DNA of 61,027 nucleotides, the filler included, from Chloroflexota bacterium (GTDB taxonomy: Bacteria; Chloroflexota; Chloroflexia; QHBQ01): NCBI GenBank assembly GCA_043754535.1. It is 5 parts of 4 records of this genome, joined end to end, with 100 filler letters (N's around TTAATTAATTAA, not from the genome) between each part and the next. Parts side by side here need not be neighbours in the genome. Positions count along the whole stretch, not along the records: positions 20,345 to 39,933 come from JAYUUN010000093.1; 4 more parts are not named here. One strand, written 5' to 3'. This document shows positions 2,924 to 42,995 of this stretch, in pieces (the first letter of the stretch is position 1; every line of letters begins with the position of its first letter). A model generated the notes under the pieces. The model did not search any database. It was not told where the DNA came from and saw nothing but the letters and a program-made list of their open reading frames with translations. Both the position numbers and the translations under genes were made by a program.

Positions 2924-2935
2924 AGCGCACGTACG

Positions 2936-2966: not shown

Positions 2967-2981
2967 CGATCATCTTGCAAG

Positions 2982-6509: not shown

Positions 6510-6515
6510 CCCCGC

Positions 6516-7697: not shown

Positions 7698-7917
7698 CTC
7701 AATTACCCCTTGCTTGCTGTTTAGTTGCAACCAAATTATAGCACAACCAGCTAGCTGTGGCCTTACCCAACTCGCCATCAACCCGCCAGCTAGCTGCCAG
7801 TTAGTAACGAAGTGGCATTTTAGGGCTGAAGTGTCAAGAACTTTACACTTTTTCGGCTGGGATGTGCTATAATGCCTTTGCCTTGCAGCAACCTTGATCG
7901 TGGAGCGTGACTTTCGC

Positions 7918-20530: not shown

Positions 20531-20559
20531 TTGACGAAAACCGCCTGGCTGCCTATAAT
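20531..20559 (+). promoter_or_regulatory. sigma70 promoter of the ECF operon
   Basis: TTGACG-17-TATAAT. Confidence 0.7.
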
Positions 20560-20620
20560 GGGGGTAGGCCAGCACGTTTGGCAACGAAGCGGCGCGACAG
20601 AGAGCGACGGAGGTAGGGCA

Positions 20621-21202: not shown

Positions 21203-21204
21203 AG

Positions 21205-24200
21205 TTGGGTTGTTCCGGCTACAAAGACCTCCTCTCTCGCTACATAGATAATGAACTAAGTAAGCGTGAGCGCGAAGAACTACTTGCACACCTGCAACAT
21301 TGTAGCAAGTGCAGCCACGCCCTGGCAAAGTACCGGCAAGTGGAGAGCCTGCTGGCCCAACCTGGCCGCGAGGAAACGAGGCCGAACCCAGCGGTGCGCG
21401 ACCGCGTGTTGGAGGCAATCCGTCCCGCCAGCCAGCAGCCTCCCCGCCCCCTGCGCCTCCCCGCCCACCGGGGCCGCCTGCGCTGGGTGGGACTGCTTGC
21501 CCTGACCAGCGCAACCTTCATCTTCACCGTACTGCTGGCCCAAAGCCAGACGGGGTTTCTCACCAACTTGCTGACCAGCCCGCCCAAGCCGAGCAGCACA
21601 CCCGACTTTGGTGCTACTGCGCTGGTCAGCAAGGCAGCTACTGCTACCTCGGTCGCTGCCCTACCGCCCGCCCATGTGGTCAGCGTGCAGCCAACCACCA
21701 GCCCGCTGGCTCTCGACCAGCCGATTGTTGCCCGCTTCGACGTGGCGATGATGCAGACCTCAGTGGAGGAAGCCTGGCAGATCGCGCCGCCTGTCCCTGG
21801 TAGCTTCCTCTGGACAGCCGACAACGAGCTAACTTTCCAGCCCTACAGCCTCGGCTATCTGCCCGGCATCACCTATACCCTGACGATCAGCAACACCGCG
21901 CATGGCAGCACCAACGGCGCACTGATCACCCCGGTCGTCTACAGTTGGATGACACGGCCAGCACCCCGCCTGCTTAGCCACGAGCCAGCCGAGTTCGCCA
22001 GCAGCACGCCGCTGACCGCCCCACTTACCCTGCGCTTTGATCGCTCGATGCAGCACGCTGCTGTGCAGGCCGCCTTCAGCCTCAGCCCCAGCCAGCAGCT
22101 TGAGTGGACATGGGCGGCAGACAGCCAGAGTGCGACAGTGCAGCCGACCACACCCCTCAATCCCAACCTGGCCTACGTGGCTACCCTCGGCCATGCTGCC
22201 CTCGACAGCAGTGGGGTTAGCATTGGCCGCGACCAGGCCTGGCGGTTCAGCACAGCAAGCCTGGCCCAGCTGACGTTTGCTGCGACCACCCTGGCGGGCA
22301 ACATAGTACTACCCCTCGCCTATAGCCCGGCTGCGAGCTACAGCCTCACCTACACCCTCACCCGCCCAACCCTGACTGCCACCAACTTGCGCTTCGACCT
22401 CTACCATGTGATCCCCACTGCGGTCGCCTTTGGCAGCCGCGCCGATCAGCGCACCCTGCTTGCCAGCTTCGCCGCCCCCGCCGAGGGCAGTAGCTCCTTG
22501 ACCGCCATCCTCGCCTTCGACCTGCCAGCAGTGGGTGACTATCTCCTGTTGCCCCAAATCGAGGGGGACGACCTGTTCAACCGCACGGTGCAGGGCTGCC
22601 TGCTGATCGTCGGGGCAGAACAGGTGCGGGTGGAACAGGTTGGCGCACAGGTGATCCTCTGGGCTACTAGTGGGGGGGCAGTGGTAGCAGGGCTGGCCCA
22701 GTTCTACGACGCGCAAGGGGTGCTGCTGGACAGCGGCCCAACCGATGCAACTGGTAGCTACCTGACCACCCTTGCTCCCGGCGTGCGGCCCGCCTTTGCT
22801 GCCCTGCGAGTAGGAGACCAGATACGCGCAGTGCTGCCGCTCGACGGCCAGCCTGCCCCCGCCAGTACCGCTCGCCTCTATGCCTACAGCGACCAGCGCA
22901 GCTACCAGCATGGGGAGAGCAAGATCAACTTCAAGGCGATCCTTTTTCTCGGTGACAGCGCAGGCTATAAACCTGCTGTGGGCGAGACCACGATCAACGT
23001 CGCCCTAGAAGATGCGGCGGGCGCACAGATTGCCAGCACTGCCTTGCGGCCCGACGACTTTGGCGCGGTCAGCGGCTCCTTTCCACTGTTGACGGGCCTG
23101 CTGGGGGGCTGGTACAGCCTGAAGGCGACCGCCCTCGACCAACAGTACAGCCAACCCCTCTACGTGCAGGGCGGCTTCGGCTGGCAGAGCGCAGAGCAGC
23201 TAGCGAATGCCGCTCCGCTACCCCCCCCCCGCAGCGACGAGCCTGCCAACAACAGCCGCTTCACGGCAGCAGCCCGCAGCTACCAGGTGGGCGAGACCGC
23301 CGCCCTCACCCTCACCCTACCAACGGCACCGACCACCCCAATGGCGGGGCTGCTGCTGCTGCGCCGTGATGGGATGATCAGCCGCCAGCCAGTGGTGATC
23401 ACGGCGGCGGAGAGTAGTTTCAGCTTGCCGCTGCCCACTGCTGCCCAGCCACTGGCGGTAGCAGAACTACTGCTGGCGGATGGCAGCGGCAGCCTGCGAG
23501 TGCCAGTGCAGGTAGGGGCGCGCAACCCATTGCTAGACGTGCGGCTGGGCCTGCCCGCCAACATCCATCCTGGCACGCCAACTACCCTCACCCTCGCCCT
23601 GAGTAATGGCGGCCAGCCGAAGCGGGGCAGCGTCAGCCTGGCGATCAGCAGCCAGCCTGCCGCTGACAGCCTACCCTCTTACTTCTACCCCCCCTTCAGC
23701 CTGGGGCTGGTGGGACAGAGCGAGCCGGGTAGCGTCGCTTACTGGAACGCCAACCTGGTGGTCAGCGAGAGTGGTGTGCTGACTGTCCCCTTCGTGCTAC
23801 CCAACGACGCGGCAGGGGGCTGGTGGCTAACGGCGCGGGCTATTGGGGACGACGGGGCAGTAGGCGAGACGGTTAGCCGCCTGACAGCGGTCGAGCCGCT
23901 CAGCCTGCGCCCGCTCACCCCCACCTATTTTGTGCAGGGGGATCGTGCTACCGTTGGCGTGCGGCTGCACAATAGCACCGGGCTGCCGCTCAAGGGCCGC
24001 GTCACTCTTAGTTCGGACGGCCTCACCTTCCTCAAACTCAATACCCTCCCCGCCGCTCAGGACGTGCTGATCGCTCCCTTCAGCGACCGCGATGTACAGT
24101 GGAGGGTCGAGATGCGGCGCAGCGGCAATGTTGACCTAGTGTTCGACTTTGCGGCTAACAGCGACGGTAGCCGCGAGTTGGGCCTGCTGCTGGATAGCTC

Positions 24201-26022
24201 CCGCGAGTTGCGCGTCCTCGTGCGCCCAGTCAGCCCACCCATCGTTAGCGCACTCGCGGGCGTGGCCGAGGAGGGGCAGCCGCTCACCTTCACCATCGCT
24301 AGCAATCTCGCCAGCGATCTCAGTCGGGTGGAGCTAGAAGTCGCGCCGTCACTAGCCGCCTTCCTGCTTGGCAGCATAGAGGCGATGACGGACGCGCCAG
24401 CCACGGGGGTGGAGCAGATCAGCAGCCAGGCGGCCAGCGTCGCTAGCCTCGATCTCGCCCTGCGCCAGTTGCGCTACAGTAGGCTGACCCTTGCCCCCGC
24501 CAGTGCCATGCTAGCCCGCACCTTGCCGCTAGTCTACGCCAGCCAGCAGGCAGATGGTAGCTGGCTGCTGGCTGGTAAGTCGGACTTCAGCACGACAGCC
24601 CTCACCCTGCACAACCTTGCGCGGCTGCGTGACAGCGGTGTGCCACCCGACAACAGGGTTAGCAGCCACGCGGTTGCCTACCTGCGGTCGCAACTACCCA
24701 CCTTGCAGGGAGAAGACCTGGCCTACGCTTACTACGTGCTGGCTCTCTACGGGGCCGCCGACCTTGATGAGGTGCGCCCGCTGCTCGCCGCCCCGCTCGA
24801 CTCCTTCGGGCAGGCCGCCCTGATCCTTGCCCTCGACAAGCTGGGCGACCGCTCTGCTGCCCGCCTGCTCGCTCGCCTGCTCAGTAGTCAGGCGATGCTC
24901 GACGCACAGGGGGCGCACTGGCTGGCCGCCTCTGCCCCGGCCAATCTTACCAGCGCAACCGTGCTGCTTGCCCTCAGTGGCAGCCTCAGCGATGACCCGA
25001 ATATTGGGCGAGGGGTACGCTGGCTGGCAGCCCAGCGGGTGGCTGGGGGCTGGGGTTCGCCACGTAGCGACGCAGCCGCCCTCGAAGCTCTTAGCAACTA
25101 TGCAGCGGCGACCAACGACGGCCAGATCATCAGCCTGGCTAATCGACCTGCCGAGGGCGATGGCCCTGCCGTTGGTGGATCGCGCCCAGCCAACCAGGCA
25201 CGCAGCTACCGGGCCTACCTGAATGGCACGCTGCTCAACGAGGCGGATGGCAAGCTGACCTCCAGCCCGCTCGACGACCGTACCCGCCTCAAGTTGCCCC
25301 TCGATCAGCTACACAGCGGCGCGAACGTCCTTCGCCTGGCAACGCAGGAAGGGGTGCCGCTCTACTATGCCCTGATCCTGGTCGCTTACCCAGCGATCAA
25401 CGCCAGCTTTGGCGCGAGTGACGAGCAGGCAGGCCAGTTCGCAGGCAACCCCCGCACCGTCTCGGCCAGCGAAGGGAGCGACCTGCGCCTGGAACGCAGC
25501 TACAGCCGCCTGGCTGGTAGTGGCCCGCTCAAGCCGGGTGATCTCGTGCGTGTAGCCCTGACGGTGACGGCTGGCATCCCCCTGAGCGGGCTGATGGTCA
25601 ACGACTACCTGCCAGCGGGCCTGACCCTCTCTGGCCCAGAGTGGCCTGCGCCCACTCCCCGGCGGCAGGCCGGTGCTTTTGGCGAGGACGAGGTGGCTAG
25701 TGACCAGCCCGCCACTACGCCGCAGGGGTTTGGCGCAGAGCAAGGGCAGGTTAGCTACTATCTGCCGGAGGTGGAGGCAGGGCCGGGGGTCAGCTACCGC
25801 TTCACCTACCTGGCCCAGGCCAGCAGCTATGGAATCTTCATCGCCCCCCCCGCCACCGTTTCGGGACGAATGGGCAGCACAGCACACACGGCCAGCGACG
25901 TGATCACCATCGAACAGGAGGATGCGGCGAAGTTATGGAGAAGTTCATCATCGAAGGCGGCCACCACCTCAGCGGCACGATCCGCCCGGCGGGGAACAAG
26001 AACGCAGCCCTACCCTTGCTAG
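21205..26022 (+). CDS. zinc-finger anti-sigma factor fused to Ig-like (Big_5) domains and alpha-2-macroglobulin
   Basis: LSRYIDNEL..HLQHCSKC (HxxxCxxC), one TM, two Big_5-like repeats, MG2-like SDQRSYQHGE, A2M AYWNANL..PTYFVQGD, TED-like QQADGSW, C-terminal GDLVRV..DYLPAGL. Confidence 0.85.
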   Translation: MGCSGYKDLLSRYIDNELSKREREELLAHLQHCSKCSHALAKYRQVESLLAQPGREETRPNPAVRDRVLEAIRPASQQPPRPLRLPAHRGRLRWVGLLALTSATFIFTVLLAQSQTGFLTNLLTSPPKPSSTPDFGATALVSKAATATSVAALPPAHVVSVQPTTSPLALDQPIVARFDVAMMQTSVEEAWQIAPPVPGSFLWTADNELTFQPYSLGYLPGITYTLTISNTAHGSTNGALITPVVYSWMTRPAPRLLSHEPAEFASSTPLTAPLTLRFDRSMQHAAVQAAFSLSPSQQLEWTWAADSQSATVQPTTPLNPNLAYVATLGHAALDSSGVSIGRDQAWRFSTASLAQLTFAATTLAGNIVLPLAYSPAASYSLTYTLTRPTLTATNLRFDLYHVIPTAVAFGSRADQRTLLASFAAPAEGSSSLTAILAFDLPAVGDYLLLPQIEGDDLFNRTVQGCLLIVGAEQVRVEQVGAQVILWATSGGAVVAGLAQFYDAQGVLLDSGPTDATGSYLTTLAPGVRPAFAALRVGDQIRAVLPLDGQPAPASTARLYAYSDQRSYQHGESKINFKAILFLGDSAGYKPAVGETTINVALEDAAGAQIASTALRPDDFGAVSGSFPLLTGLLGGWYSLKATALDQQYSQPLYVQGGFGWQSAEQLANAAPLPPPRSDEPANNSRFTAAARSYQVGETAALTLTLPTAPTTPMAGLLLLRRDGMISRQPVVITAAESSFSLPLPTAAQPLAVAELLLADGSGSLRVPVQVGARNPLLDVRLGLPANIHPGTPTTLTLALSNGGQPKRGSVSLAISSQPAADSLPSYFYPPFSLGLVGQSEPGSVAYWNANLVVSESGVLTVPFVLPNDAAGGWWLTARAIGDDGAVGETVSRLTAVEPLSLRPLTPTYFVQGDRATVGVRLHNSTGLPLKGRVTLSSDGLTFLKLNTLPAAQDVLIAPFSDRDVQWRVEMRRSGNVDLVFDFAANSDGSRELGLLLDSSRELRVLVRPVSPPIVSALAGVAEEGQPLTFTIASNLASDLSRVELEVAPSLAAFLLGSIEAMTDAPATGVEQISSQAASVASLDLALRQLRYSRLTLAPASAMLARTLPLVYASQQADGSWLLAGKSDFSTTALTLHNLARLRDSGVPPDNRVSSHAVAYLRSQLPTLQGEDLAYAYYVLALYGAADLDEVRPLLAAPLDSFGQAALILALDKLGDRSAARLLARLLSSQAMLDAQGAHWLAASAPANLTSATVLLALSGSLSDDPNIGRGVRWLAAQRVAGGWGSPRSDAAALEALSNYAAATNDGQIISLANRPAEGDGPAVGGSRPANQARSYRAYLNGTLLNEADGKLTSSPLDDRTRLKLPLDQLHSGANVLRLATQEGVPLYYALILVAYPAINASFGASDEQAGQFAGNPRTVSASEGSDLRLERSYSRLAGSGPLKPGDLVRVALTVTAGIPLSGLMVNDYLPAGLTLSGPEWPAPTPRRQAGAFGEDEVASDQPATTPQGFGAEQGQVSYYLPEVEAGPGVSYRFTYLAQASSYGIFIAPPATVSGRMGSTAHTASDVITIEQEDAAKLWRSSSSKAATTSAARSARRGTRTQPYPC

Positions 26023-28363: not shown

Positions 28364-28810
28364 ATGAAGCTCAAGCTGCACCGCACAGTCCGCACGCCGC
28401 ACTCCGAGGAGATTTACGTCTACGACCTGGATGAGAAGGATGACGCGGGCGAACCGCTGGATATCGGCAAGATGGACTTGCACTACACCGAAGATCAGAT
28501 CGTCGGTACCCTCTTGCTCTGGCAAGATTGGCAAGAGGGCGTGGGCGCAAGCCTGGACTTGCAGGCGGTAGTGGACGAAATCTTGGAGGAAATCTCCGAG
28601 CCGCTGGGCGTACCTGCCGAGTATGACATCGAGTACTACCTCTGCAACCGCGACAGCCGCCAGTTTGTCAGCAATATTGACGACGACTTTGACGAGATGT
28701 ACGACAGCGATGACATCTACGGCGATGAGGAGGCCGACGAGGCGGATGAGAGCAACACCAGCGACCCCACCACCCGGCAGGCCAACGCCAACACCGACAG
28801 CAACAAGTAG
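28364..28810 (+). CDS. highly acidic hypothetical protein
   Basis: AGGAG RBS, upstream TATAAT; D/E-rich 148-aa ORF. Confidence 0.75.
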   Translation: MKLKLHRTVRTPHSEEIYVYDLDEKDDAGEPLDIGKMDLHYTEDQIVGTLLLWQDWQEGVGASLDLQAVVDEILEEISEPLGVPAEYDIEYYLCNRDSRQFVSNIDDDFDEMYDSDDIYGDEEADEADESNTSDPTTRQANANTDSNK

Positions 28811-29851: not shown

Positions 29852-31201
29852 ATGGTGACGCAAACGACAGGGCGAACGTTCCCCCGGCTGGCCGGGCTGC
29901 CAGTGATCGGCAACCTGCACACTTTCCTGCGCGACCGCGTTGGTATGCTCGATCAGGTGAAGGAGCAGTGCGGCGACATTGGTGGCTTCCAACTGCTGGG
30001 CTGGCACGGCGTGATGATCAACTCCGCCGAGTATGCGCGCCATGTGTTGGTCACTGACGCGGCTGAGTACGAGAAGGGCATGGTGCTACGCCGCTACCTG
30101 CGCCCAATCCTCGGTGATGGGATGCTCAACAGCCTCAACGTCAAGCACCGCCGCTTGCGGAAGCTGGCCTCGCCCGCCTTCCACATGAAGCGGATCGCGG
30201 GCTACGCAACCACAATGGCCGACCACGCCGAACGCGCCCAACGACAGTGGGTGACAGGGCAGGTGGTGGATGTGCAACAGGAGATGACCCGCATCGCGCT
30301 AGGTATCGTCGGCAAGACGCTGTTCGACACTGATGTGCTGGATGAGGCGGACGAACTTGGCCGCGCCCTGACCACGGTGCTACATCACGCCAACACCCAG
30401 ATCACTGCGCTGGTAAGGGTGCCACTGCATTGGCCGACTTTGCGGCATGGGGCAGTGCGCCAGGCAGTAGCCCGCTTGGACGCGACGATCTACCGCCTGA
30501 TCACCGAACGACGGCGCAGCGGTGAGGACAAAGGCGACCTCCTCTCTATGCTGATCGCCGCCCAGGACGAGACGGATGGTAGTCTGGACGACAGCCAGTT
30601 GCACGACGAGGCGATGACTATCCTGCTGGCTGGCTACGAGAACACCGCAAACTCGCTGGCCTGGACCTGGTACCTGCTCACCCAGCATCCTGAGATGTAC
30701 GAGAGGGTGGCAGCCGAGGCCGACGCAGTATTGGGCGGGCGGTCGCCAGTGATGGCCGACCTGCCCAAGCTGACCTACACCATGCAGGTACACAAGGAGG
30801 CGATCCGCCTCTACCCGCCTTTCTACGTGATCGAGCGGGAGACCAGCCACGACCTCAACCTGGACGGCTACCGCATCCCCGCTGGCACCTGGGTGATCAT
30901 CAGCCCCTACTTCCTGCATCGCCGCGCCGACTACTACCCGCAGCCACTGCGGTTTGACCCTGAACGGTTTACCCCGGCAAACGAGAAGCGGCTGCCCGCC
31001 TATGCTTACATCCCCTTTGGGGCAGGGCCACGCATCTGCATTGGCAACAACTTCGCTATGATGGAGATACAGATCGTCCTTGCTGCTCTTGCCCAGCGCA
31101 TCCGCTTCAGCCTGGAGCCAGGCCAGCAGGTTGAGCCAGAGCCACTGATCACCCTGCGCCCAAAGGGCAAGCTGCTGATGCGCGTGACGCGACGGTTATA
31201 G
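29852..31201 (+). CDS. cytochrome P450
   Basis: AGYENT I-helix, EAIRLYPP (ExxR), FDPERF, FGAGPRICIG heme motif. Confidence 0.95.
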   Translation: MVTQTTGRTFPRLAGLPVIGNLHTFLRDRVGMLDQVKEQCGDIGGFQLLGWHGVMINSAEYARHVLVTDAAEYEKGMVLRRYLRPILGDGMLNSLNVKHRRLRKLASPAFHMKRIAGYATTMADHAERAQRQWVTGQVVDVQQEMTRIALGIVGKTLFDTDVLDEADELGRALTTVLHHANTQITALVRVPLHWPTLRHGAVRQAVARLDATIYRLITERRRSGEDKGDLLSMLIAAQDETDGSLDDSQLHDEAMTILLAGYENTANSLAWTWYLLTQHPEMYERVAAEADAVLGGRSPVMADLPKLTYTMQVHKEAIRLYPPFYVIERETSHDLNLDGYRIPAGTWVIISPYFLHRRADYYPQPLRFDPERFTPANEKRLPAYAYIPFGAGPRICIGNNFAMMEIQIVLAALAQRIRFSLEPGQQVEPEPLITLRPKGKLLMRVTRRL

Positions 31202-31217
31202 GTGTCGCTGGATAGCA

Positions 31218-31251
31218 GAATGGCCCTCAGCCAGACGGCTGTAGGGCCATT
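31218..31251. terminator. hairpin between convergent P450 and small-peptide genes
   Basis: AATGGCCCTCAGCC..GGCTGTAGGGCCATT inverted repeat. Confidence 0.55.
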
Positions 31252-31280
31252 GCTACGGGAAGGGAGAGGAAGCTAGCGGC

Positions 31281-31454
31281 TTAGGCTACTGCCTTCGGGC
31301 TGATCCCCTCGATCCAGTGTGTGTCTGGGTCGCCAGCTACCGTCTGAACCTGGTTGGTGGTCAAGTTAAAGGGTGCATAGCCACCCACGAAGCAGGCACT
31401 CGACACTACTAGCCACAAAGCGACAACTGCGCCAGCCACAATCTTCTTGGTCAT
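31281..31454 (-). CDS. small secreted peptide, 57 aa (not in ORF track)
   Basis: MTKKIVAGAVVALWLVVSSACFVVGYAPFNLTTNQVQTVAGDPDTHWIEGISPKAVA; KK plus hydrophobic core resembles a signal peptide. Confidence 0.65.
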   Translation of the reverse strand: MTKKIVAGAVVALWLVVSSACFVGGYAPFNLTTNQVQTVAGDPDTHWIEGISPKAVA

Positions 31455-31548
31455 CTTAGTATCTTTCTTTATAGATGCCCAGCGGACGGGCAGTAATCAG
31501 CTTCGTTTTGGTTGATTGGTGGCTGGTTGGACGGGGTGGGGTTAGCTA

Positions 31549-32676
31549 CTATCCGGACTCGTTAGCCCCGCTCAGCCTGCGCTCCAACTCGGCCAGGCGT
31601 TGCTCTACGGTGCTGAGGCGGGTGGCAAGGAGGGCAGAGCGGAGCAACTCATGTTGGCTACCACCTACCTGTGGCGGCGTGGTCAGCCGCTGGAGAGAGG
31701 CCAGCCCAGCGGCTAGCGCGCGCTGGTGAACAGTCAGGGCGGTCCGCCCCCGCCCAGGGTTGCTACCTGGGGGGGAGGACTGCAGCAGAACAGGGTCGGA
31801 GGACCATGGCAGGAGAGATGAGGCAAAATTGCGCCAGCGCACTGTTGAGGATGCGCCTCCCTTTAGCCGCTCATAGAACCCCGGCAGGGCCGACACCTCG
31901 CCCTTTGCCTGTATTACATAGAAGTTGGCTTCGTTGCGAACCTGGTCAATGACCAGTCCCACTCTGGGACTGCCAAAGCCCAATCGCTGGATGTTCTGGT
32001 CGTTAGCCGTGAACTCGGTGCCGCCATTGGGCCGTGAGTGGTACCAACCGACGATCCGCATATTCAAGTGCTGTGCGGCCTGGGCAAGTAGGGTCGCCCA
32101 GCCCTCGTGACTGAAAACGAAATGGCCTGCCATCGCCAGGGGGTAGGGCAGCGCGTCGGCGACCCATAGGTGCTGGCGGCTGTTGGCAGCGTATATCTGG
32201 CCGAGCAGCAGCCCCCCGACCTCGACCCGGCTAGCCCGCGCCTGGGCCATCACCTTTGCGTAGCTGCTCTGGCTAAAGGAAACTTGTACGCTAGCTTGCT
32301 CTGGTTCGCCCCAAATAGCGTGTTGCTCAGGGAAGCAGAAGGGGCTAGCGGGTAGGTAAGGGATGCAAGCGGTTTGCTCAAGCACACGCCCTGTGCTGCT
32401 GGAGGCCGCAGCGACAGGCCTGCTGCCCTCGGCAAGCGGGGTCGTCAGCAGGCGCAGGGTGTCATGGTCAACCACCCCAGCCGCCCGCAGCGTCGTGTCG
32501 CCAGCCAGAAGCTGACCGCTACGGCGCAGGAGCAGGCGAGCCTCAACCGGAGCTGTCACCCCCAGGCTGGGTAGCAGCGGTGGCAGCAGCGCAGCCAACC
32601 GCGCGTCACTGGGTAGCAGTACCTCAAAGCGGTTGTCACCCAGCAGATCAACGATGTACACAACTTGCTTTTTCAT
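31549..32676 (-). CDS. EsaB/YukD-like ubiquitin-fold domain fused to degenerate JAB/MPN domain
   Basis: N-terminal ..TTLRAAGVVDHDTLRL (Ubl); EVGGLLLG and IVGWYHSRP..FTAND (JAB); AGGAG RBS. Confidence 0.75.
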   Translation of the reverse strand: MKKQVVYIVDLLGDNRFEVLLPSDARLAALLPPLLPSLGVTAPVEARLLLRRSGQLLAGDTTLRAAGVVDHDTLRLLTTPLAEGSRPVAAASSSTGRVLEQTACIPYLPASPFCFPEQHAIWGEPEQASVQVSFSQSSYAKVMAQARASRVEVGGLLLGQIYAANSRQHLWVADALPYPLAMAGHFVFSHEGWATLLAQAAQHLNMRIVGWYHSRPNGGTEFTANDQNIQRLGFGSPRVGLVIDQVRNEANFYVIQAKGEVSALPGFYERLKGGASSTVRWRNFASSLLPWSSDPVLLQSSPPGSNPGRGRTALTVHQRALAAGLASLQRLTTPPQVGGSQHELLRSALLATRLSTVEQRLAELERRLSGANESG

Positions 32677-32743
32677 CAGGCCACTCCTTGCCGTTCGTTT
32701 CAGAACTGCAAGAGCATCGTACCCGCAAGCCTGTGGCTGGCTA

Positions 32744-32797
32744 TGTCATTCTGTGTCAGCACTAAAACTTGACAAAGCTCGATTTCTGATCTAAGAT
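32744..32797 (+). promoter_or_regulatory. promoter of the STAND gene with TGTCA repeats (putative operator)
   Basis: TTGACA-17-TAAGAT; TGTCA at 32744 and 32754, inverted TGACA at 32770. Confidence 0.55.
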
Positions 32798-32841
32798 ATA
32801 GGTGGGGAAGATATGGAGACGCAACAGAGGGGGAACAGGCG

Positions 32842-35823
32842 ATGTACAACCTTGACCGCTTCTGCGAGGCGGTGACAGCCCACTGCCATCAAGCGCGGGT
32901 GTTTGACGGCAAGAAGGCCCGGCAGCAAGACCTGGCTGACGCGATCAACATCAGCCTCACCGCCCTCAACAAGCGGCTGCACAACAAGGACGGCCACCAC
33001 CTCAGCCACGAGAATGCAAGGGCGATAGTGCGTACCCTGGCGGGCTGGGAGACGGTTAGCAGTCAGGCTGAAGCGCGGGCGTTGCTCGACCTGGTAGATT
33101 GCCCCGACTTCACCGCCGCCGAGTGGCAGGCCGCCCCGCTCTGCGATCTTGTTCCCGACCTGGCTGCGCCACCAGCCCCTGCGCCAGCCACCAGCCCTGC
33201 TGCGCTGATCTACCGCCCCACTGCGCCGCTGCGGGTGCGGGGTAGGGTGGCAGAACTGGGCCGCTTGCGCCGCTTGCTCCGCCAGCAACGCTGCCTGGCG
33301 ATCACTGGTCTGCATGGGCTAGGCAAGTCTACGCTCGCCACCCTCTACTACACCCAGTTTGAGCAGGAAGGCGGTCGCTGCTACTGGCAACTGATAGATG
33401 AGCATACAACAATGCGCGATTTGGCTGGCGGCTTCTTCGACGCTATTGGGCAGCCTCGCGACCTGGGGCGGCTAACCGCCGACCAGCAGGCAATTACCCT
33501 GCTCAACTGGTTGCGCCAGCAGCCCGAACGGTACCTCTTGGTGCTGGATAATTGCGAAGCCTTGCTGAACAAAAACAGTGTCTTCCGCCGCGAAGGTTTC
33601 GACCGCCTGCTGACGGGTTTGATCGAGCAGAGTGGCAATAGCGAAGCGATCCTTACCAGCCGCTACCTGCCACGCACCAACCAGGGGCGCGAACCGCTCG
33701 AGCTATGCCTCACAGGGCTGGACGCAGAGGAGGGAGCCTTGCTGCTGCGCGATCAGCAGATCGGCGAACTGCTAGGTGCCGAAGTGGGCGACCTGGACGC
33801 ACTGCTGGCGACGGTCAGTACCAGAGCCAGCGGCCACCCTCTCGCCCTGATCTACCTGGTGCAGTTGCTGCGGAAGGGCTACACCCTCACTCGCTTGCTG
33901 GCCGACGAGCAGTTGTGGCGGGGCGAGATCGGGCAGAACCTGCTTGGTTCGGTCTACGCCCAGCTAACCCCCCATGAACAGCAACTGCTACAATTCATTG
34001 CCGTATTCGGCCAACAGCCGGTCACCAGGGCCGACGTAGCCGGGATGCTAGCCCAACTCAGCCCACCGCCAGATAAGTGGTCGCTCGCCAGCATCGAGCG
34101 GCACGCCCTGGTGCTGCGCCGCCGTGCGCTGGTCAGCATCGAACAGGACAGCTACTATCTCCTGCCTCTGGTGTGCCAGTTTAGTTATGAACAGCTAGCC
34201 CACGCCCCACGCTACCACGCCGCTGCCGCCCGCTACCTGCTTAGTTGCGCCCCTAATCCCAGCAACCCTGCCCGCACGCTGGCAGAGGCTCGCCCACTGC
34301 TGCGCGCCTTCGAGCAGTTCTGCGCCGCTGCCGACTACCAGGCCGCCCACCACCTGTTGGACGAGCGGCCCATCGCCTACTTGAGCGATGGTAGTCCGCT
34401 CAACCTGGTCGAGTTGCTGCACCGCTGGGGGGAGTACCAGTTGCTTGCCAGCCTCTGCGACCAGGTGTTGGTGGGCGAGAACGATTTGGCGGTGGAGCAG
34501 AGGGCCGCGGCTATGAGCAACGCGGGCTTGGCCTGCTACCTACTCGGCCAGGTAGAGGACGCAGGGGATTACCAACAGCGGGCATTGGCCGCCCAGCCGA
34601 GCGATGAGCGGCAATTGGCGATCTGCCTGACCAGGCTGGGCCAGGCCAACAATCGGCGTGGTCAGCCCGACCTCGCCCTCAGCCAGCACGAGCAAGCCCG
34701 AGCCCACGCCGAAGCCGCAGGCGACCGCCGCATCCAGGCCCAGTGCCTCGGCAACCAGGCGATGGTCTATGGCGATCTTGCCCTTTATGGCGAGTCGCTG
34801 GCCCAACTGGAAGCGGCCTTGCTGCTGGCGCGGGCGAGCGGTGACGAGCGCGGCATTGCCAGCTATCTTGCCAACCTCGGCTCGATCCATTACAAGCAAG
34901 GGGCGCAGCAGGCAGCGGTCACTTGCTATGCCGAAGCCCTGGCGGTGGCCGAAGTGATTAACTACACAGAGTGCAAGGCGGGCTTGCTTGGCAACCTTGG
35001 CCTCACCCAGATGGCTTTGGGCGACTATCGGCAGGCAGTTGATCGCTACGAGCGGGCGATTGCGCTGGACGAGCAACGCGTCAACCTACGCTCCCAAGCC
35101 ATCAACCTCAACAACCTCGGCTACGCCCACGAGCAGCTTGGCTCCTACCAGCAGGCAGAGATGTACTACGCGCAAGCCTTCCTGGTTGCCACCCAGAGCG
35201 GCATTCGGCGCAGTGCGTGCCTGGCCCAGGCCAACCAGGGTAGTGCATACCGCGGTCTCGGCGACCTGGCAGCGGCGGTGGCCTGCAATGAGCGGGCCTG
35301 GAACCTGGCTGAGGAGCTGCAATACCCGCTAGGGATGACCAGTGCCGCCAATAACCTGACGCTCGTATATGCAGACCTGGGCGACTACCAACAAGCCATC
35401 GACTGGGGCAACCAGGCTCTCACCTGCGCCAGCGAAGCAAAGAATGAGGAAGGCAAGGCCAAAGCCCTGGCTCACCTGGGCCACACCTACACCCTTGTCG
35501 GGCAGCAACAACAGGCTCATCGGCTGCTGCATGATGCTTTGCAGATTGTGCAGCGCACTGGCAACCGCCGCAATGAGGGACAGTGCTGGCACTACCTGGC
35601 CGACCTGTTCGCCACCCTACCTGCCCCGCGCGAGGCCGTCGCTTGCTACATCAAGGCGCAAACTCTGCGCGAAGCAACCAGCGACCCCCAGGCGGCGGCC
35701 AGTAGTGGGCGGATCGTTGATCTCTACCAGCAGACCGCCGCCACGCTCTGGCCCGACCTCTACGCCGCCGCGAGTGCGCTAGCCGTCCTACCAGGCTGGC
35801 TGCCCGCTCTCGTTGGCGACTAG
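32842..35823 (+). CDS. XRE-type HTH - NB-ARC (STAND) ATPase - TPR protein
   Basis: QQDLADAINISLTALNKRL HTH, GLHGLGKS Walker A, LLVLDNCE Walker B, ILTSR, GHPLAL, about 9 NLG..Y..LG TPRs. Confidence 0.88.
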   Translation: MYNLDRFCEAVTAHCHQARVFDGKKARQQDLADAINISLTALNKRLHNKDGHHLSHENARAIVRTLAGWETVSSQAEARALLDLVDCPDFTAAEWQAAPLCDLVPDLAAPPAPAPATSPAALIYRPTAPLRVRGRVAELGRLRRLLRQQRCLAITGLHGLGKSTLATLYYTQFEQEGGRCYWQLIDEHTTMRDLAGGFFDAIGQPRDLGRLTADQQAITLLNWLRQQPERYLLVLDNCEALLNKNSVFRREGFDRLLTGLIEQSGNSEAILTSRYLPRTNQGREPLELCLTGLDAEEGALLLRDQQIGELLGAEVGDLDALLATVSTRASGHPLALIYLVQLLRKGYTLTRLLADEQLWRGEIGQNLLGSVYAQLTPHEQQLLQFIAVFGQQPVTRADVAGMLAQLSPPPDKWSLASIERHALVLRRRALVSIEQDSYYLLPLVCQFSYEQLAHAPRYHAAAARYLLSCAPNPSNPARTLAEARPLLRAFEQFCAAADYQAAHHLLDERPIAYLSDGSPLNLVELLHRWGEYQLLASLCDQVLVGENDLAVEQRAAAMSNAGLACYLLGQVEDAGDYQQRALAAQPSDERQLAICLTRLGQANNRRGQPDLALSQHEQARAHAEAAGDRRIQAQCLGNQAMVYGDLALYGESLAQLEAALLLARASGDERGIASYLANLGSIHYKQGAQQAAVTCYAEALAVAEVINYTECKAGLLGNLGLTQMALGDYRQAVDRYERAIALDEQRVNLRSQAINLNNLGYAHEQLGSYQQAEMYYAQAFLVATQSGIRRSACLAQANQGSAYRGLGDLAAAVACNERAWNLAEELQYPLGMTSAANNLTLVYADLGDYQQAIDWGNQALTCASEAKNEEGKAKALAHLGHTYTLVGQQQQAHRLLHDALQIVQRTGNRRNEGQCWHYLADLFATLPAPREAVACYIKAQTLREATSDPQAAASSGRIVDLYQQTAATLWPDLYAAASALAVLPGWLPALVGD

Positions 35824-35848
35824 CAAGCCACAACCACAAGGTTTTGCG

Positions 35849-35876
35849 GGCGGATCGCTGATCCGCCTCTTTTTTT
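35849..35876 (+). terminator. rho-independent terminator
   Basis: GGCGGATC-gct-GATCCGCC followed by a T run. Confidence 0.75.
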
Positions 35877-35900
35877 GCCCGCAAATGATGGTCAGTTTCC

Positions 35901-36527: not shown

Positions 36528-39500
36528 TTGTCCAAACTAACCGATTTCTCGCTCAAACGCGCTTCGGTAATCATCCTGCTGATCCTTGCAGTGGTGGCCG
36601 GTGGCGCATACACAACCACCCGCCTGCGTACCGAGTTGCTGCCCGATATCACCTTCCCGGTACTATCGGTGATCACTATCTACCCTGGGGCCAGCCCCAG
36701 CGATGTGGCCGAGGGCGTGACCAGGCCACTAGAGCAGGCGATGGGCAACACGGCCAAACTGCAAACCCTGCAATCTACCAGCGGCGAGAATCTCAGCCTG
36801 ATCAGTGCCAGCTTCGCCTTCGGCACTGACATGAAGGAAGCAGCCAGCACGGTAGAGAACAGCCTCAAGTCGGTAGTGCTGCCCCAGAACGCAGTCGCAG
36901 CCCGCGTGCTACGCTTCGACTTCAACAGCTTCCCAGTCGTGCAGTTGAGCCTGCTCAGCACCGACAGCAAGTTGACCCCCAACCAGCTTGAGCAGATCGC
37001 CCGCGACCGGCTCGTTCCAGAGTTGGCGAAGATTGACGGTGTATTCAACGTAGAGGTAACGGGTGGCACCACCCGCGAGGTGCAGGTTGTCTTCGACGCG
37101 GCCAAACTGCGCCAGAAGAAGCTGACTGCTGGGCAGGTGAGCGGCATCTTGCAGGCCAACAACCTCTCCTTCCCCAGTGGCACGATTGAACAGAATGGCA
37201 CCAGCGTACCAATCCGCACCACCAACCAGTTCACCAGCACAGCCCAGCTTGAGAACCTGATCGTCGGGGTAGAACTGCCCGCGGGTGCAACCGGTGCAGG
37301 TAGCGGCTTTGGCGGCGCAAGCGGCGCACCGGGCGGCGCACCAAGTGGCAGCGGCTTTGGCGGCGCAAGCGGCGCACCAAGTGGCGCACCAGGCGGCGTA
37401 TCCACTGGCAGCGGCTTCAGCGGCAGCCAGGCGATCACGGGCAGCTTGCCGATCAGTGGCACTGCGACTGGGGCGGCAGCCTTCCAGCCCAAGCCGATCC
37501 TGCTCAAGGATATCGCCAGCGTGGTCGTCACCGACTCGGCGGCCAGCACTATCGTGCGGACGAACGGCCAGACCGCCGTTGGCATCTCGGTCAGCAAGGC
37601 GCGGGAGGGCAACACGGTTGAGATTTCGCACAAGATACGCGATACAGTCGCTCGCCTCGCTCCTGACTTCGCCAACCAGCAGATCAAGGTGGAGACGATC
37701 CAGGATCAGGCTCCGACCATTGAGGAGTCTATCGACGGGCTGCTGAAGGAGGGGCTGGTTGGCGCACTGTTCGCTATCCTGGTCATCTTCATCTTCCTAC
37801 GCTCAGTGCGTAGCACGCTGGTTACGGCGATCAGCCTGCCGCTCAGCATCATCGCCACCCTGCTAATCATGGGCTGGCAAGGGCTGAACCTCAACATCTT
37901 CACCCTCGGCGGCATCGCCATCGCGGTAGGTCGGGTGGTAGATGACAGTATTGTGGTCTTGGAGAACATCTATCGCCACGTGCAGATGGGCGAGTCGCCC
38001 CGTGAGGCGGCCTTCAACGGCACCAAAGAAGTGGCCTCGGCGATCACCAGCAGCACGATCACCACGGTGGCGGTCTTCCTGCCACTCGGCCTGGTCGGTG
38101 GCATCATCGGCGAAATCTTCCTTCCCTTCGCCTTGACCGTCACCTACGCCCTGCTCTCCAGCCTGGTGATCGCCCTGACTGTAATCCCAGTGCTGGCAAT
38201 GTTCTTCATCAACGCCCGCACTGTGCGCCACGAGGAGGGCGACAGTGCCGTACAGAAGTTGTACGCGCCTGCTCTCAGCCTGGCATTGCGCCACCGCAAG
38301 CTGACCTTGTTGCTTGCAGTGCTGCTGTTCTTCGCTTCGTCCGCGCTCGTTCCTTTCATCCCCACCAGCTTCTTGCCCAACCAGGGCAGTAAGCTAGCGA
38401 CAATCAGCGTCAGCCCGCCGCCAGGTGGCAGCTTCGCCACCTTGAGTGCCAAGACTGCGCAGATGGAGGCGGTACTGGCCGACCCCAAGACGCAGGTTGC
38501 TACAATTCAAAGCACGATCAGCACTGGCTCAAGCTCGTCGGCCTCGTTGCAGGCAGCCAGCCAGGGGCAGGGAACAACGACTGCCTCGATCCAGGTACGC
38601 TTTAAGGATGAGGCCGACCTCGATGCCCGCATCCGCGACCTGCGCGCAACCGCCACTGACTTGAGCAAGGACGGCTCGCGGATCGCGGTCAACGTCCTCA
38701 CCGGCGGCCCACCAACCTCGCGCCTGTCAGTGATCCTCAGCGGCCAGACCCAGGATGAGTTGCGCCAAGCTGGCGAACAGGTGACCAAGACGCTAGCCGA
38801 GGTCAAGGGGCTGGCGAACCTCAGCAGCGACGTGCAGAGCGCACGCCCAGAGATCGCAGTGCAGGTTGACCCCAACAAAGCGATCCTCAGCGGCCAGACT
38901 ACGATCCAGCTTGCTCTCAACATCCGCCAAATCCTCGCTGGTAGTACAGCCACGACGGTGCGGCTAGAGGGGAGCGGCAGCCCGCTCAACGTGCGCCTGC
39001 TCTTTCCCGCCGACACGCTCGGCAGCGAAGCCGCCCTGCGTAGTTTGCCGATTGGCACCGGGCCAACCGGCCAGCCAGTGTTGCTGGGCGACGTGGCAAC
39101 GGTCAGCACGGCCAGTGGCCCGACCCAGGTTACGCGCTACAACCAGCGGCTGGCGGCCACCATCTCGGCAGACATCATCGCCGAAGCGACCGGCCCGCTC
39201 ACCCTTGACGTAAACAAGCGGCTCAACGCGCTCGCCCTGCCTGCTGGCGTGACCCGCGAGGTGGGTGGCTCGTTCGCCCAAAATAGCAGCAGCTTCAACA
39301 ACCTCGTCCTCGCCCTACCGATTGCCATCCTGCTGGTCTACCTGGTGATGGTGATTACCTTCGGCAGCCTACTCACCCCGTTCATCATCCTGTTCTCGCT
39401 ACCACTAGCCAGCGTCGGCGCGTTCGTCGCACTGTTTATCACTAGGCGACCAATTGGCATCTCGGCCCTGATCGGCCTGCTGCTGCTGATCGGCATCGTA

Positions 39501-39860
39501 GTAACCAACGCAATCGTGCTGATCGACCGCGTAGAGCAGTTGCGCGGCCAGGGGATGCGGGTCAGCGATGCGCTAACCCAGGCGGCCCGCACTCGCGTGC
39601 GCCCGATCCTGATGACTGCGGTAGCTACCATCCTCGCTCTGCTACCGCTGGCCCTCGGCTTCAACCAGGGGTCGTTGATCGCGGCTGAACTGGCGACCGT
39701 GGTAATCGGCGGCCTGCTTACCTCAACCCTGCTCACCCTACTCGTCGTACCAGTCGTCTACAGCCTGATCGAGGGGCTGAAGCAGCGGCTGGGTGGCAAC
39801 CGCCAGCCAGTAGCCCGCGTTCAGGAGCCAGTGCAGCCCGAAGCTACAGCGGCGGCGTAG
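36528..39860 (+). CDS. RND efflux permease (AcrB/SwrC-like)
   Basis: ELLPDITFP, YPGASP, GRVVDDSIVVLENIYRH, GIVVTNAIVLID, RVRPILMTA. Confidence 0.93.
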   Translation: MSKLTDFSLKRASVIILLILAVVAGGAYTTTRLRTELLPDITFPVLSVITIYPGASPSDVAEGVTRPLEQAMGNTAKLQTLQSTSGENLSLISASFAFGTDMKEAASTVENSLKSVVLPQNAVAARVLRFDFNSFPVVQLSLLSTDSKLTPNQLEQIARDRLVPELAKIDGVFNVEVTGGTTREVQVVFDAAKLRQKKLTAGQVSGILQANNLSFPSGTIEQNGTSVPIRTTNQFTSTAQLENLIVGVELPAGATGAGSGFGGASGAPGGAPSGSGFGGASGAPSGAPGGVSTGSGFSGSQAITGSLPISGTATGAAAFQPKPILLKDIASVVVTDSAASTIVRTNGQTAVGISVSKAREGNTVEISHKIRDTVARLAPDFANQQIKVETIQDQAPTIEESIDGLLKEGLVGALFAILVIFIFLRSVRSTLVTAISLPLSIIATLLIMGWQGLNLNIFTLGGIAIAVGRVVDDSIVVLENIYRHVQMGESPREAAFNGTKEVASAITSSTITTVAVFLPLGLVGGIIGEIFLPFALTVTYALLSSLVIALTVIPVLAMFFINARTVRHEEGDSAVQKLYAPALSLALRHRKLTLLLAVLLFFASSALVPFIPTSFLPNQGSKLATISVSPPPGGSFATLSAKTAQMEAVLADPKTQVATIQSTISTGSSSSASLQAASQGQGTTTASIQVRFKDEADLDARIRDLRATATDLSKDGSRIAVNVLTGGPPTSRLSVILSGQTQDELRQAGEQVTKTLAEVKGLANLSSDVQSARPEIAVQVDPNKAILSGQTTIQLALNIRQILAGSTATTVRLEGSGSPLNVRLLFPADTLGSEAALRSLPIGTGPTGQPVLLGDVATVSTASGPTQVTRYNQRLAATISADIIAEATGPLTLDVNKRLNALALPAGVTREVGGSFAQNSSSFNNLVLALPIAILLVYLVMVITFGSLLTPFIILFSLPLASVGAFVALFITRRPIGISALIGLLLLIGIVVTNAIVLIDRVEQLRGQGMRVSDALTQAARTRVRPILMTAVATILALLPLALGFNQGSLIAAELATVVIGGLLTSTLLTLLVVPVVYSLIEGLKQRLGGNRQPVARVQEPVQPEATAAA
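37299..37398 (+). repeat. 48-bp tandem duplication encoding a G/S/A/P linker in the RND gene
   Basis: AGCGGCTTTGGCGGCGCAAGCGGCGCACC at 37302 and 37350. Confidence 0.85.
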
Positions 39861-42056: not shown

Positions 42057-42954
42057 ATGTCCATCCCCGACGTGCAAGCTCTATTGCTGACGCTACTGCG
42101 GTCGCTGGAAGACCGCCACGAACATGGGCTAGAGCAGTTGAGCAGTCAGCTTGCCGCCCAGTTCGGCATGGGCCTGGCGGATGATGAGCAGCAAGCACGC
42201 TTCAGCAACCGGGTGGCAAACGCCCGCGACGAGTTGAGCAACCTGCGGCTGCTGCGGCGCACCAGTTGGGGACGGCTGCGAATCACCAAGCTGGGACTAC
42301 GTACGCTGCGGGGCAAGCCGGGCAAGCAGCCGGGCCGCCTGCCAAAGGGGATAGCCAGCAAGCAGCCGCTGATTGCGACCAGCGAATTGCTAGCCACTCC
42401 ACCCCAGGCTGCCCCTCTCAAGGAGCGCATCGAGGCTGACTATCTGGCCTTGCAGAAGCTGCTCGGTGACGAATTGATCGCCCGCATCTTGCAGGCCTCC
42501 CCCCGCCTGTTCGAGTACCTCTGCGTTGATCTGCTGGTGGCGATGGGATACAGCGGCGGCTCGCGCAAGGAGGTGAACGCGCAGGTGACGAAGGCGAGCG
42601 GTGACGAGGGCATTGACGGCATTGTGCGGGGCAACGACAAGCTCAACCTCTATACTGTCTACATCCAGGCCAAACGCTACCAGCCATCCGGTTGGGCGGC
42701 CAATGTTGCAGGAGTTCGAGGGGTCACTGGCGGGTATCCGCAAGGCAGTGATCGGCGTGTTCATCACCACCAGCCGCTTTACCCGCGAAGTAAAGGAGTA
42801 TGTGGCAAAGATCGACCGCCAGATCGTGTTGATCGACGGCAAGCAGCTAGTAGACTTGATGATCGAGTACAAACTGGGCGTGATCGAGGAAGCGAGCTAC
42901 ACCCTCAGCCGCCTGGACGAGGGCTACTTCCAGAGGTACGCGGGGCAGAAGTAG
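42057..42954 (+). pseudogene. mrr: Mrr type IV restriction endonuclease, frameshifted near 42685
   Basis: Mrr_N, FEYLCVDLLVAMGY, GDEGIDG, IQAKRY in one frame; VGRPMLQEF..GVFITTSRF..LIDG..LMIEY in the +1 frame. Confidence 0.85.
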
Positions 42955-42995
42955 AGGGCGCAGCATGGAAGTAGTGCGCCCTCTCACCTTATTGG

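Follow-up and report, generated by a model that had tools for sequence, protein, structure and literature searches.

Bacterial ubiquitin-like (Ubl) systems and sensors of the STAND class (signal transduction ATPases with numerous domains) have been studied intensely as ancestors of eukaryotic signalling and immunity. Prokaryotic conjugation operons of the composition E1-E2-RING-Ubl-JAB were reportedly described by Burroughs et al. in 2011, non-catalytic MPN-minus domains are known from Rpn8 and CSN6, and receptors of the RRNPP family contain no NTPase module. In the regulator GutR, the helix-turn-helix (HTH) domain is N-terminal, and the gene and its target are transcribed in opposite directions. 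MalT, GutR and AfsR are treated as non-immune STAND transcription regulators in the available part of PMC13581612, and YukD as a non-conjugated Ubl in that of PMC1779556. Systems that pair a metallopeptidase with a small, rapidly diverging peptide, and that are coupled to AP-ATPase proteins with tetratricopeptide repeats (TPR) and to Ubl tri-ligase systems, are described for multicellular bacteria in the available text of Kaur et al. 2020 (PMC7159879), which lists HTH domains among the effector modules. The locus analysed here, from a Chloroflexota bacterium (GCA_043754535.1), brings together parts that are each of a familiar type, namely a regulator of the STAND class, a prokaryotic Ubl plus JAB domain, and an apparently exported tandem-repeat protein.

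The gene of the STAND protein lies back to back with two genes on the opposite strand, which code for a Ubl domain fused to an MPN/JAB domain (the Ubl-MPN protein) and for the repeat protein (Table 1). We assign a probability of roughly 40% to the reading that the STAND protein is a transcription factor like GutR, MalT and AfsR, that the divergent operon is under its control, and that the Ubl-MPN protein is either its partner or its output. The three open reading frames (ORFs), their layout, the 165-nt gap and the bounding hairpins had been proposed in an earlier sequence-only reading and were recovered by ORF calling and folding. The genome (G000) is a metagenome-assembled genome of 132 contigs and 88.9% completeness, and together with the genomes searched alongside it for E2 and RING falls in a range of 84–89% completeness. 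The window, that is the whole analysed stretch of 61,027 nucleotides, consists of contigs with stretches of N between them (352 N in total; C91 at 1-10079, C92 from 10180, C93 from 20345), so that features spanning the joints would be artefacts; the finding lies on C93, whose positions are converted to window positions by adding 20344.

The STAND protein (993 aa) shows the hallmarks of the STAND/AP-ATPase class, namely Walker A and B motifs, an NB-ARC match (residues 149-347; 29.3 bits, Pfam cut-off 23.5) and a C-terminal repeat sensor with six TPR_12 stretches (E 5e-36). The nSTAND6 model also matched (28.5 bits, cut-off 27.7), and G156, G159, G161, K162 and D236 are invariant in all eight aligned orthologs and paralogs. 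The NCBIfam match to AfsR covered the TPRs only (43 bits, cut-off 1430). With the 993-aa sequence alone as query, no HTH model of Pfam matched at E<0.01. The eight ortholog and paralog N-termini align as a conserved domain of ~100 residues with a core that resembles an Xre-type HTH; their profile matched the HTH of PDB entry 4ich (“Transcriptional regulator”) at E 1.3e-3, and weak Pfam matches were found to HTH_24 in seven and to HTH_3 in five of them. An AlphaFold2 (AF2) model has a predicted local distance difference test score (pLDDT) of 76-88 over residues 1-100, and a fold search with it returned almost entirely lambda-repressor/Xre-type domains (DdrO, HipB, C.Esp1396I, P22 c2, SinR), none of them at E<=0.001. 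These weak but consistent signals point to an Xre-like HTH; the HTH-NB-ARC-TPR and Ubl/JAB domain calls of the sequence-only reading were thus supported, the HTH by these signals and the others by Pfam.

The Ubl-MPN protein (375 aa) has no signal peptide. Its N-terminal part passes the Pfam YukD model (residues 12-76; E 2.1e-6, 28.8 bits, cut-off 27) and is modelled as a beta-grasp fold (strands 3-9, 16-22, 44-50 and 73-80, helix 27-34, pLDDT 84-96), and therefore qualifies as a YukD-like Ubl (PF08817); the protein is the sole YukD match in G000, as is its ortholog in G001, a genome of a second species of the same genus. The match to the JAB model (E 9.7e-5, 22.6 bits, cut-off 22.5) covers residues 151-231. 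With an overall pLDDT of 83.8 and values mostly above 90 in the MPN domain, the AF2 model retrieved Rpn11 (4owp_B, E 5.5e-10), a Caldiarchaeum Rpn11 homolog, CSN5 and PfJAMM1 in Foldseek, which places the domain by fold in the JAMM/MPN+ family (JAB, PF01398). The active site departs from that family: the motif reads GWYHSRPNGGTEFTAND (H213-S-R215-x7-T223-x2-D226, with E152 retained) in place of the canonical zinc site H-x-H-x7-S-x2-D plus upstream Glu, the second His being Arg and the Ser being Thr. One zinc ligand is thereby lost, while Glu, the first His and Asp remain in place. H-x-H and Ser occur in 60 of 63 JAB-bearing sequences (alignment A5), the three with Arg being the window protein, its G001 ortholog and a relative of 39% identity (P0011); the HSR form also occurs on a metagenome contig (L107). 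In P0011, the Ser and Asp are lost in addition to the Arg at the second zinc-His position, which suggests that inactive members recur in this JAB family. Given the change of the second zinc His to Arg, the Ubl-MPN protein probably has no protease activity.

At the C-terminus of the protein, a helical tail replaces the transmembrane segment and the PT-rich or LysM tail of the closest relatives (alignment; Pfam LysM in P0005 and P0009). The position that aligns with the C-terminal end of the relatives' Ubl, where conjugation would call for a free or releasable end in small residues (…TAG, …TAGG), reads ...PLAEGS and runs on into the MPN domain, and release of the Ubl in cis is doubtful because the JAB site is broken. 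Between the two species of the genus, all three genes of the locus are under purifying selection: the ratio of nonsynonymous to synonymous rates (dN/dS) is 0.24 for the Ubl-MPN gene (25 amino-acid differences in 375 codons at a synonymous rate, dS, of 0.14) and 0.12 for the STAND gene, and the leader of the repeat protein shows no nonsynonymous and four synonymous differences. The neighbouring cytochrome P450 gene, used for comparison, has a dN/dS of 0.08.

An exhaustive HMMER search with the Ubl-MPN protein among 1.84 billion representative sequences retrieved 1299 matches at E<=1e-3, of which 129 reached E<=1e-10; almost all of the matches span the JAB part only. The closest relatives (36-44% identity) consist of an N-terminal JAB domain, a membrane segment and then PT-rich or LysM tails, and true YukD-JAB fusions elsewhere (P0026, P0094, P0137, P0139) are 26-29% identical. 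A word-based search of 5.8 billion proteins retrieved only the protein's own cluster, a metagenome scan for its gene found a single contig (100% identical over the JAB gene), and a protein atlas look-up returned JAB and LysM clusters only, all below 0.9. The relatives' operons, in Chloroflexota and other phyla, contain a ThiF E1 (in some cases with a GntR HTH), Prok-RING_1, a UQ_con E2, a YukD-like Ubl, JAB, FHA and vWA. Across 80 Ubl/JAB loci fetched from reference genomes, tblastn found E2 in 64-68, RING in 33-34, E1 in 70, Ubl in 57-60, FHA in 31 and vWA in 17; in all 12 Anaerolineae-type loci examined, the JAB gene is preceded by a Ubl gene of its own, which ends ...MMTADVTAG-stop. No E2 (three queries) or RING (two queries) was found by tblastn in G000, and family and protein searches for both in G000, G001 and G002 were empty. 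E1-like tblastn hits in G000 were restricted to contigs C29 and C84, with none at the locus. A working ubiquitin-like system is hence unlikely, as a zinc-ligand His is lost and E2 and RING were not found in the genome. The HSR motif, the empty E2 and RING searches, the confident fold and the purifying selection argue together for a maintained, probably non-catalytic adaptor rather than a working deubiquitinase. A second, small JAB gene adjoins an E1-like (ThiF) gene on C29 (35898-37415); this is probably an ordinary sulfur-carrier pair (MoaD/CysO-type), unrelated to the finding. A role of the YukD-like domain in type VII secretion was rejected, since the Pfam annotation of 20531 to 56683 shows no gene of such a system nearby, neither an FtsK-like ATPase of the EssC/EccC type nor WXG100, and since the Ubls nearest to it in sequence belong to the conjugation-operon type.

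The pairing of STAND and Ubl genes is also seen in another genus of the family, which is sister to that of the window. There, the genome G002 encodes a 996-aa STAND protein that is colinear with the focal one (39% identity over 979 aligned columns; the paralogs within G000 share 25-29% with it) and whose NB-ARC domain is the order's best match outside the window's genus (44% identity, E 2e-73; others 1e-47 or weaker). Its gene is divergent from that genome's only match to the window's Ubl, a stand-alone YukD-like protein of 102 aa with 43-45% identity. The flanks differ, with P450 on one side and MarR and AcrB on the other in the window, and with PGA_cap and DUF3160 on one side and PQQ and PBP on the other in G002, where a vWA-fragment gene follows the Ubl gene. 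None of the other 15 family matches of the focal NB-ARC type has a Ubl gene within the fetched flank, and no relative of the focal STAND was found in any of the 80 Ubl/JAB loci; the conserved synteny with changed flanks, together with these two counts, suggests that the pairing is specific, conserved across rearrangement, and narrow. In a phylum sample of 401 genomes, the focal NB-ARC type had only distant matches (33-38% identity, one other family). The full trio was found in the window's genus only (order, protein and metagenome searches), and the repeat-protein gene was not found at the G002 locus. The divergent pair with different flanks supports the earlier proposal of a DNA-binding STAND regulator tied to the divergent Ubl, and the expected conservation of the neighbourhood was borne out for this pair in two genera, although not for the trio beyond its genus nor for the Ubl/JAB loci. 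The vWA-like gene past the Ubl in G002 (L108, 6077-6739, minus strand) ends in a MIDAS-like stretch (…LIDMSGSMDESGD) that is normally the start of a vWA domain; it may be rearranged or broken. Near-identical DNA to positions 31100-33000 (92-99% of sampled words) was present in sediment, glacier and freshwater metagenomes of several studies (runs X1, X5, X6 and X8), which indicates that the organism is widespread in these habitats; runs X1-X4 may represent the source sample. None of the 16 matching runs listed was of RNA.

Further context comes from the paralogs. The first 453 residues of the STAND protein had 12 matches in G000 and 18 in G001, and at least seven full-length members are encoded in G000 (the focal one on C93, two on C97, and one each on C78, C43, C71 and C62). 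Ten loci of the family in G000 were examined on greedy ORF calls, with Pfam annotation of 27 proteins. A divergent upstream neighbour is present at six of the seven full-length loci, and four of these six are exported cell-envelope genes, three coding directly for S-layer homology (SLH) proteins and one for a subtilase that is followed by an SLH protein. This arrangement fits a family of local regulators, and is suggestive of HTH-NB-ARC-TPR proteins serving in this lineage as regulators of envelope or exported proteins. The paralogs concerned lie on C78, C43, C97 and C71 (loci L099-L103), divergent from large genes for exported SLH, subtilase or GH5 proteins.

The 165-nt control region is 98% identical to that of G001, and the promoter scan gave three sigma-70-like matches where 1.1 would be expected for the region covered. 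The 8-mers common to the paralog intergenic regions resemble -10 elements. Downstream, the two genes of the minus strand may form one transcription unit, with a spacer that is highly conserved between the two species (DNA alignment with G001). The strong hairpin behind the repeat-protein gene is kept in G001; it also lies just past the convergent P450 gene, and may act as a terminator for both transcripts.

Under the favoured reading, the module would be a lineage-specific regulatory cassette. The Xre-like HTH of the STAND protein would bind the shared promoter region and control the divergent operon, with the NB-ARC NTPase as the switch and the TPR array as the sensor of a protein or peptide ligand. 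The first product of the operon would be a cytoplasmic Ubl in permanent fusion with a catalytically inactive MPN domain and with a coiled-coil tail, a non-enzymatic adaptor left from an E1-E2-RING-Ubl-JAB system, which may be the partner of the STAND protein, whether it feeds back as a ligand of the TPR array or is the main output. The second product would be an exported protein of three to five tandem 17-residue units, a genus-specific addition. DNA binding, regulation of the divergent operon and the protein-protein contacts are what we infer in this scheme.

Several observations weigh against it. The 165-nt region contains no inverted repeat of at least 6 nt with a gap of at most 30 nt, no k-mer of at least 9 nt is common to three or more of the seven paralog intergenic regions, and the intergenic regions of the window and G002 show neither an alignment nor a common motif. 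The scores behind the HTH assignment are weak. The pattern of paralog neighbours was spotted after the fact and on our own ORF calls, SLH proteins are common in G000 (150 domain hits scored out of 268 candidates), and their enrichment near the paralogs is weak by a plain 6-kb distance criterion (rough estimate). Since the STAND family is expanded, a single adjacency of STAND and Ubl genes could be chance. The full trio is confined to one genus and the pair to three genomes of two genera, which are related and hence not independent, and the pair was not found in G003 and G004 (the other two genomes of the sister genus, 83% complete). Finally, at 84–89% genome completeness E2 and RING have not been found, and their absence is not proven.

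Part of this also favours the alternative that the three genes are unrelated neighbours, with a STAND protein that regulates elsewhere or nothing nearby, a Ubl-MPN gene that is a decaying operon remnant, and a repeat protein that is a size-variable surface lipoprotein, for which Vlp and Vsa of mycoplasmas offer a comparison. The lost zinc ligand, the E2 and RING genes that were not found and the lack of an E1 at the locus would be expected of a remnant, and the very narrow distribution, the expanded STAND family and a repeat number that varies between assemblies point the same way. A decaying gene is at odds, however, with the intact reading frame of the Ubl-MPN gene, its dN/dS and its confident fold, and chance adjacency with a STAND-Ubl pair that outlives the change of both flanks between genera. 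We therefore consider this alternative unlikely, though it deserves serious weight.

A conflict system, which the sequence-only reading had proposed as a defence module, is improbable. In such a reduced defence or programmed-death system, the STAND protein would detect a protein of the invader, with the Ubl-MPN protein and the peptide as effector or amplifier. The co-occurrence of AP-ATPase+TPR proteins, Ubls and processed peptides, with HTH domains among the effectors, in the available text of Kaur et al. 2020 (PMC7159879) speaks for it, as does a locus on an Anaerolineales chromosome (L013) at which a STAND protein adjoins E1-Ubl-E2-JAB. On the other side, PADLOC returned only generic models for JAB and for TPR (the latter PDLC01169 and PDLC01171) and no Avs-type match, and the surroundings of the trio are housekeeping genes without a defence island, which leaves no evidence for defence. 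The combination of a defence-model match with an enzymatic effector domain that marks antiviral STAND proteins was not found, the N-terminal domain being an HTH, and no nuclease, protease, TIR or pore effector is present. The metallopeptidase is a JAB with a broken zinc site and not a zincin, no radical-SAM, vWA-MoxR or FtsH gene is adjacent, and the focal STAND is missing from all 80 Ubl/JAB loci. The sole defence-type gene seen nearby codes for an Mrr-like restriction endonuclease (Mrr_N + Mrr_cat; 42057-42974, plus strand), ~6 kb downstream in the window. At L013 (3505-5679), the STAND protein is of the nSTAND3-HEAT type, a family different from the focal one, and its gene lies directly upstream of the operon, in which an insertion-sequence-type integrase is inserted between E1 and Ubl.

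The third gene is affected by the assembly. In the window it is an ORF of 57 aa without a Pfam family, in which the leader (MTKK...VSSAC) is followed by a spacer of 16 aa, a single unit of 17 aa, TVAGDPDTHWIEGISPK, and the tail AVA. Relative to the window, G001 has a 204-nt insertion of four further 51-nt units, which gives a 125-aa protein with five units; the metagenome contig L107, whose JAB gene is 100% identical to that of the window, has four units (108 aa), and a protein-database entry (P0152) three (91 aa). Contigs of four metagenome runs from four studies were aligned to the window for a depth test. In all four, the flanking contigs stop at 31311-31326, short contigs of the unit and its junctions cover 31285-31340, and the unit reaches a summed depth of 3.8-5.0 times the depth of its flanks. 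The contig ends, the depth and the multi-unit assemblies show that the single unit of the window is an assembly collapse, and that the natural gene encodes a putative export signal, a 16-residue spacer and three to five units of [AVT]VAGDPDTHWIE[GR]ISPK. Over ten units from two species, 15 of the 17 residues are invariant, and four of the invariant codons show synonymous differences. The protein is probably exported, as judged by inspection of its leader with the lipobox-like SSAC. The secreted peptide of the sequence-only reading thus kept its export-like leader, whereas the single short peptide gave way to a multi-unit repeat protein. Within the order, the gene was found in two of 40 genomes, both of the same genus, and the five-unit form retrieved from 5.8 billion proteins only P0152 and the low-complexity P0153 (E 0.03). 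The latter (JGI, 187 aa, DPDPHYFGKL-like repeats and an exact stretch DPDTHWIE) was set aside as a chance match.

Such a product invites an explanation by peptide signalling between cells, in which the repeat polyprotein would be cut to 17-mers or shorter peptides; these would re-enter the cell and bind to the TPR array of the STAND protein, which would then alter transcription, with RRNPP-like logic. A gene with a signal-peptide-like leader does stand in an operon beside an HTH+TPR receptor, the three to five units are near-identical and held constant at the protein level despite synonymous changes, and one Lys per unit is, by inspection, a possible processing site. This scenario nevertheless appears quite improbable: no processing protease or Opp-type importer was found in the neighbourhood, to which the search was limited, the peptide gene is absent from the G002 locus that keeps STAND and Ubl, and the lipobox-like Cys and size-variable repeats fit a surface lipoprotein equally well. 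A complex prediction for the TPR array (residues 440-993, alignment A6) and the four-unit repeat protein (L107, residues 22-108) scored 0.00 and 0.00, which is not evidence either way. The most elaborate variant, in which the exported polyprotein is cut, a returning peptide switches the HTH-NB-ARC-TPR factor, and the dead Ubl-MPN protein acts as a cytoplasmic adaptor or anti-activator, is very improbable, although, if true, it would represent the first RRNPP-like signalling known to be gated by an NTPase, and a bacterial parallel to the multi-copy pheromone precursors of fungi.

Table 1. Features of the STAND/Ubl-MPN locus in window coordinates, with the divergent neighbours of the STAND paralogs.
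Feature	Position	Strand	Basis
Strong hairpin 3' of repeat-protein gene	31211..31256	-	-32.8 kcal/mol, z -4.5, 0/200 shuffles as stable
Repeat-protein (“peptide”) gene	31281..31454	-	ORF call
Single 51-nt repeat unit kept, assembly-collapse site	31293..31343	-	contig ends and depth in 4 runs
Spacer between Ubl-JAB and repeat-protein genes, 94 nt	31455..31548	-	no strong structure (z -0.57)
Ubl-MPN (Ubl/JAB) gene, 375 aa	31549..32676	-	ORF call, Pfam
C-terminal helical, coiled-coil-like tail, residues 316-373	31558..31731	-	AF2 helices 316-332 and 340-373
MPN/JAB domain, Rpn11-like fold, residues 119-270	31867..32322	-	AF2, Foldseek
Degenerate JAMM motif H-S-R-x7-T-x2-D, residues 213-226	31999..32040	-	alignment A5
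YukD-like Ubl (beta-grasp) domain, residues 3-80	32437..32670	-	Pfam, AF2
Divergent control region, 165 nt	32677..32841	.	promoter scan
Sigma-70-like promoter match, back to back with the plus-strand one	32775-32748	-	promoter scan
Sigma-70-like promoter match TTGACA/17/TAAGAT	32769-32797	+	promoter scan
STAND gene, 993 aa: HTH + NB-ARC + TPR	32842..35823	+	ORF call, Pfam, alignments
Xre-like HTH domain, N-terminal, ~100 aa (probable)	32842..33141	+	alignment A4, profile, Pfam (weak), AF2
NB-ARC (AP-ATPase) NTPase: Walker A GLHGLGKS, Walker B LLVLDN	33286..33882	+	Pfam, alignment
TPR sensor array	34222..35688	+	TPR_12 in 6 stretches, other TPR families; PADLOC generic TPR model at 461-670
Intrinsic-terminator-like hairpin past STAND gene, 9-bp stem + T7 run	35848..35878	+	folding, motif scan
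Focal STAND divergent neighbour: Ubl-JAB gene			
Paralog divergent neighbour: SLH-GH5 protein			
Paralog divergent neighbour: DUF7948-SBBP-SLH protein			
Paralog divergent neighbour: SLH-LamG protein, then another SLH protein			
Paralog divergent neighbour: S8 subtilase, then 3395-aa DUF7948-S8-SLH protein			
Paralog divergent neighbour: unannotated 118-aa ORF, then Ser/Thr kinase + FHA regulator			

Other genes of the same contig were recorded in passing. At 20531-26022 (plus strand), a gene for an extracytoplasmic function (ECF) sigma factor is followed by one for an unusual 1605-aa fusion of a zf-HC2 anti-sigma zinc finger with Big_5, A2M, MG2 and bMG10 domains. The ORF at 28364-28810 (plus strand) encodes a very acidic protein of 148 aa without a Pfam family, whose C-terminal half is rich in Asp and Glu. 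Downstream of the MarR gene, an AcrB-type transporter of the resistance-nodulation-division (RND) superfamily (36528-39860, plus strand; best ACR_tran stretch 321-1081) contains a low-complexity insertion of ~70 residues, rich in Gly, Ser and Ala, around residues 250-320.

Literature searches revealed no description of a YukD-JAB fusion with a STAND protein, supplementary files lying outside the search, and none of a bacterial signal-peptide-bearing precursor of tandem units beside a TPR receptor. Nor did they reveal an account of a Ubl-MPN fusion that is kept under selection with its zinc site broken, has no conjugation enzymes beside it and goes with a single group of STAND orthologs. The interest of the locus lies in this Ubl-MPN protein, which has lost a zinc ligand, is still selected without detectable conjugation machinery, and is kept beside one STAND protein across genera. 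The exported tandem-repeat product would link it to cell-surface or signalling biology in filamentous Chloroflexia, while the narrow, uncultured lineage limits the immediate impact.

Compared with known systems, the STAND protein is similar in architecture to GutR of Bacillus subtilis, MalT and AfsR, each of which likewise unites DNA-binding domain, STAND NTPase and TPR or TPR-like sensor in a single chain, the likeness to GutR being one of architecture and not of sequence comparison. It differs from these regulators in that the neighbours are Ubl-MPN and exported repeat-protein genes instead of catabolic enzymes. A sugar is an unlikely ligand; the Ubl-MPN protein is a concrete candidate for the protein ligand that a TPR-STAND transcription factor may sense. 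RRNPP receptors (Rap, NprR, PlcR, PrgX, AimR) resemble the locus in having an HTH and TPR receptor beside an exported pro-peptide gene, but the window's receptor has an NB-ARC domain and its pro-peptide several units, and no RRNPP-family model was among the Pfam and NCBIfam hits of the window proteins. The systems in the available text of Kaur et al. 2020 (PMC7159879) have in common with the locus a gene of metallopeptidase fold, a small peptide gene confined to its lineage, an AP-ATPase protein with TPRs, and a host from a multicellular bacterial lineage; there, however, the peptidase is a zincin and not a JAB with a broken site, a radical-SAM gene is present that is lacking here, and the peptides have an FxSxx, RxD or acidic C-terminus where the window's peptide has an export signal and tandem units. 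By the features given in that text, the AP-ATPase-TPR part alone matches a peptide-processing system.

The Ubl-MPN protein itself has three kinds of counterpart. Its Ubl passes the Pfam cut-off for YukD, as in YukD/EsaB of type VII secretion, but the neighbourhood contains no FtsK-like ATPase or WXG100 gene, and the closest Ubls come from conjugation-type operons. With the prokaryotic E1-E2-RING-Ubl-JAB operons it shares, as far as the available part of Iyer et al. 2006 (PMC1779556) describes them, the JAB family and a YukD-like Ubl, and it is set apart by the fusion of Ubl and JAB, the HSR form of the JAMM motif, the lack of an E1 at the locus, and E2 and RING not having been found in the genome. 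The third counterpart is the MPN-minus domains, with which it shares an Rpn11-like fold with an incomplete zinc site, so that a role as a scaffold or in Ubl binding is plausible. Compared with Rpn8 and CSN6, it has lost one ligand only, and the loss of activity is deduced from that change; if this holds, the “pseudo-enzyme adaptor” route of the eukaryotic MPN-minus proteins would have a bacterial example in the Ubl-MPN protein.

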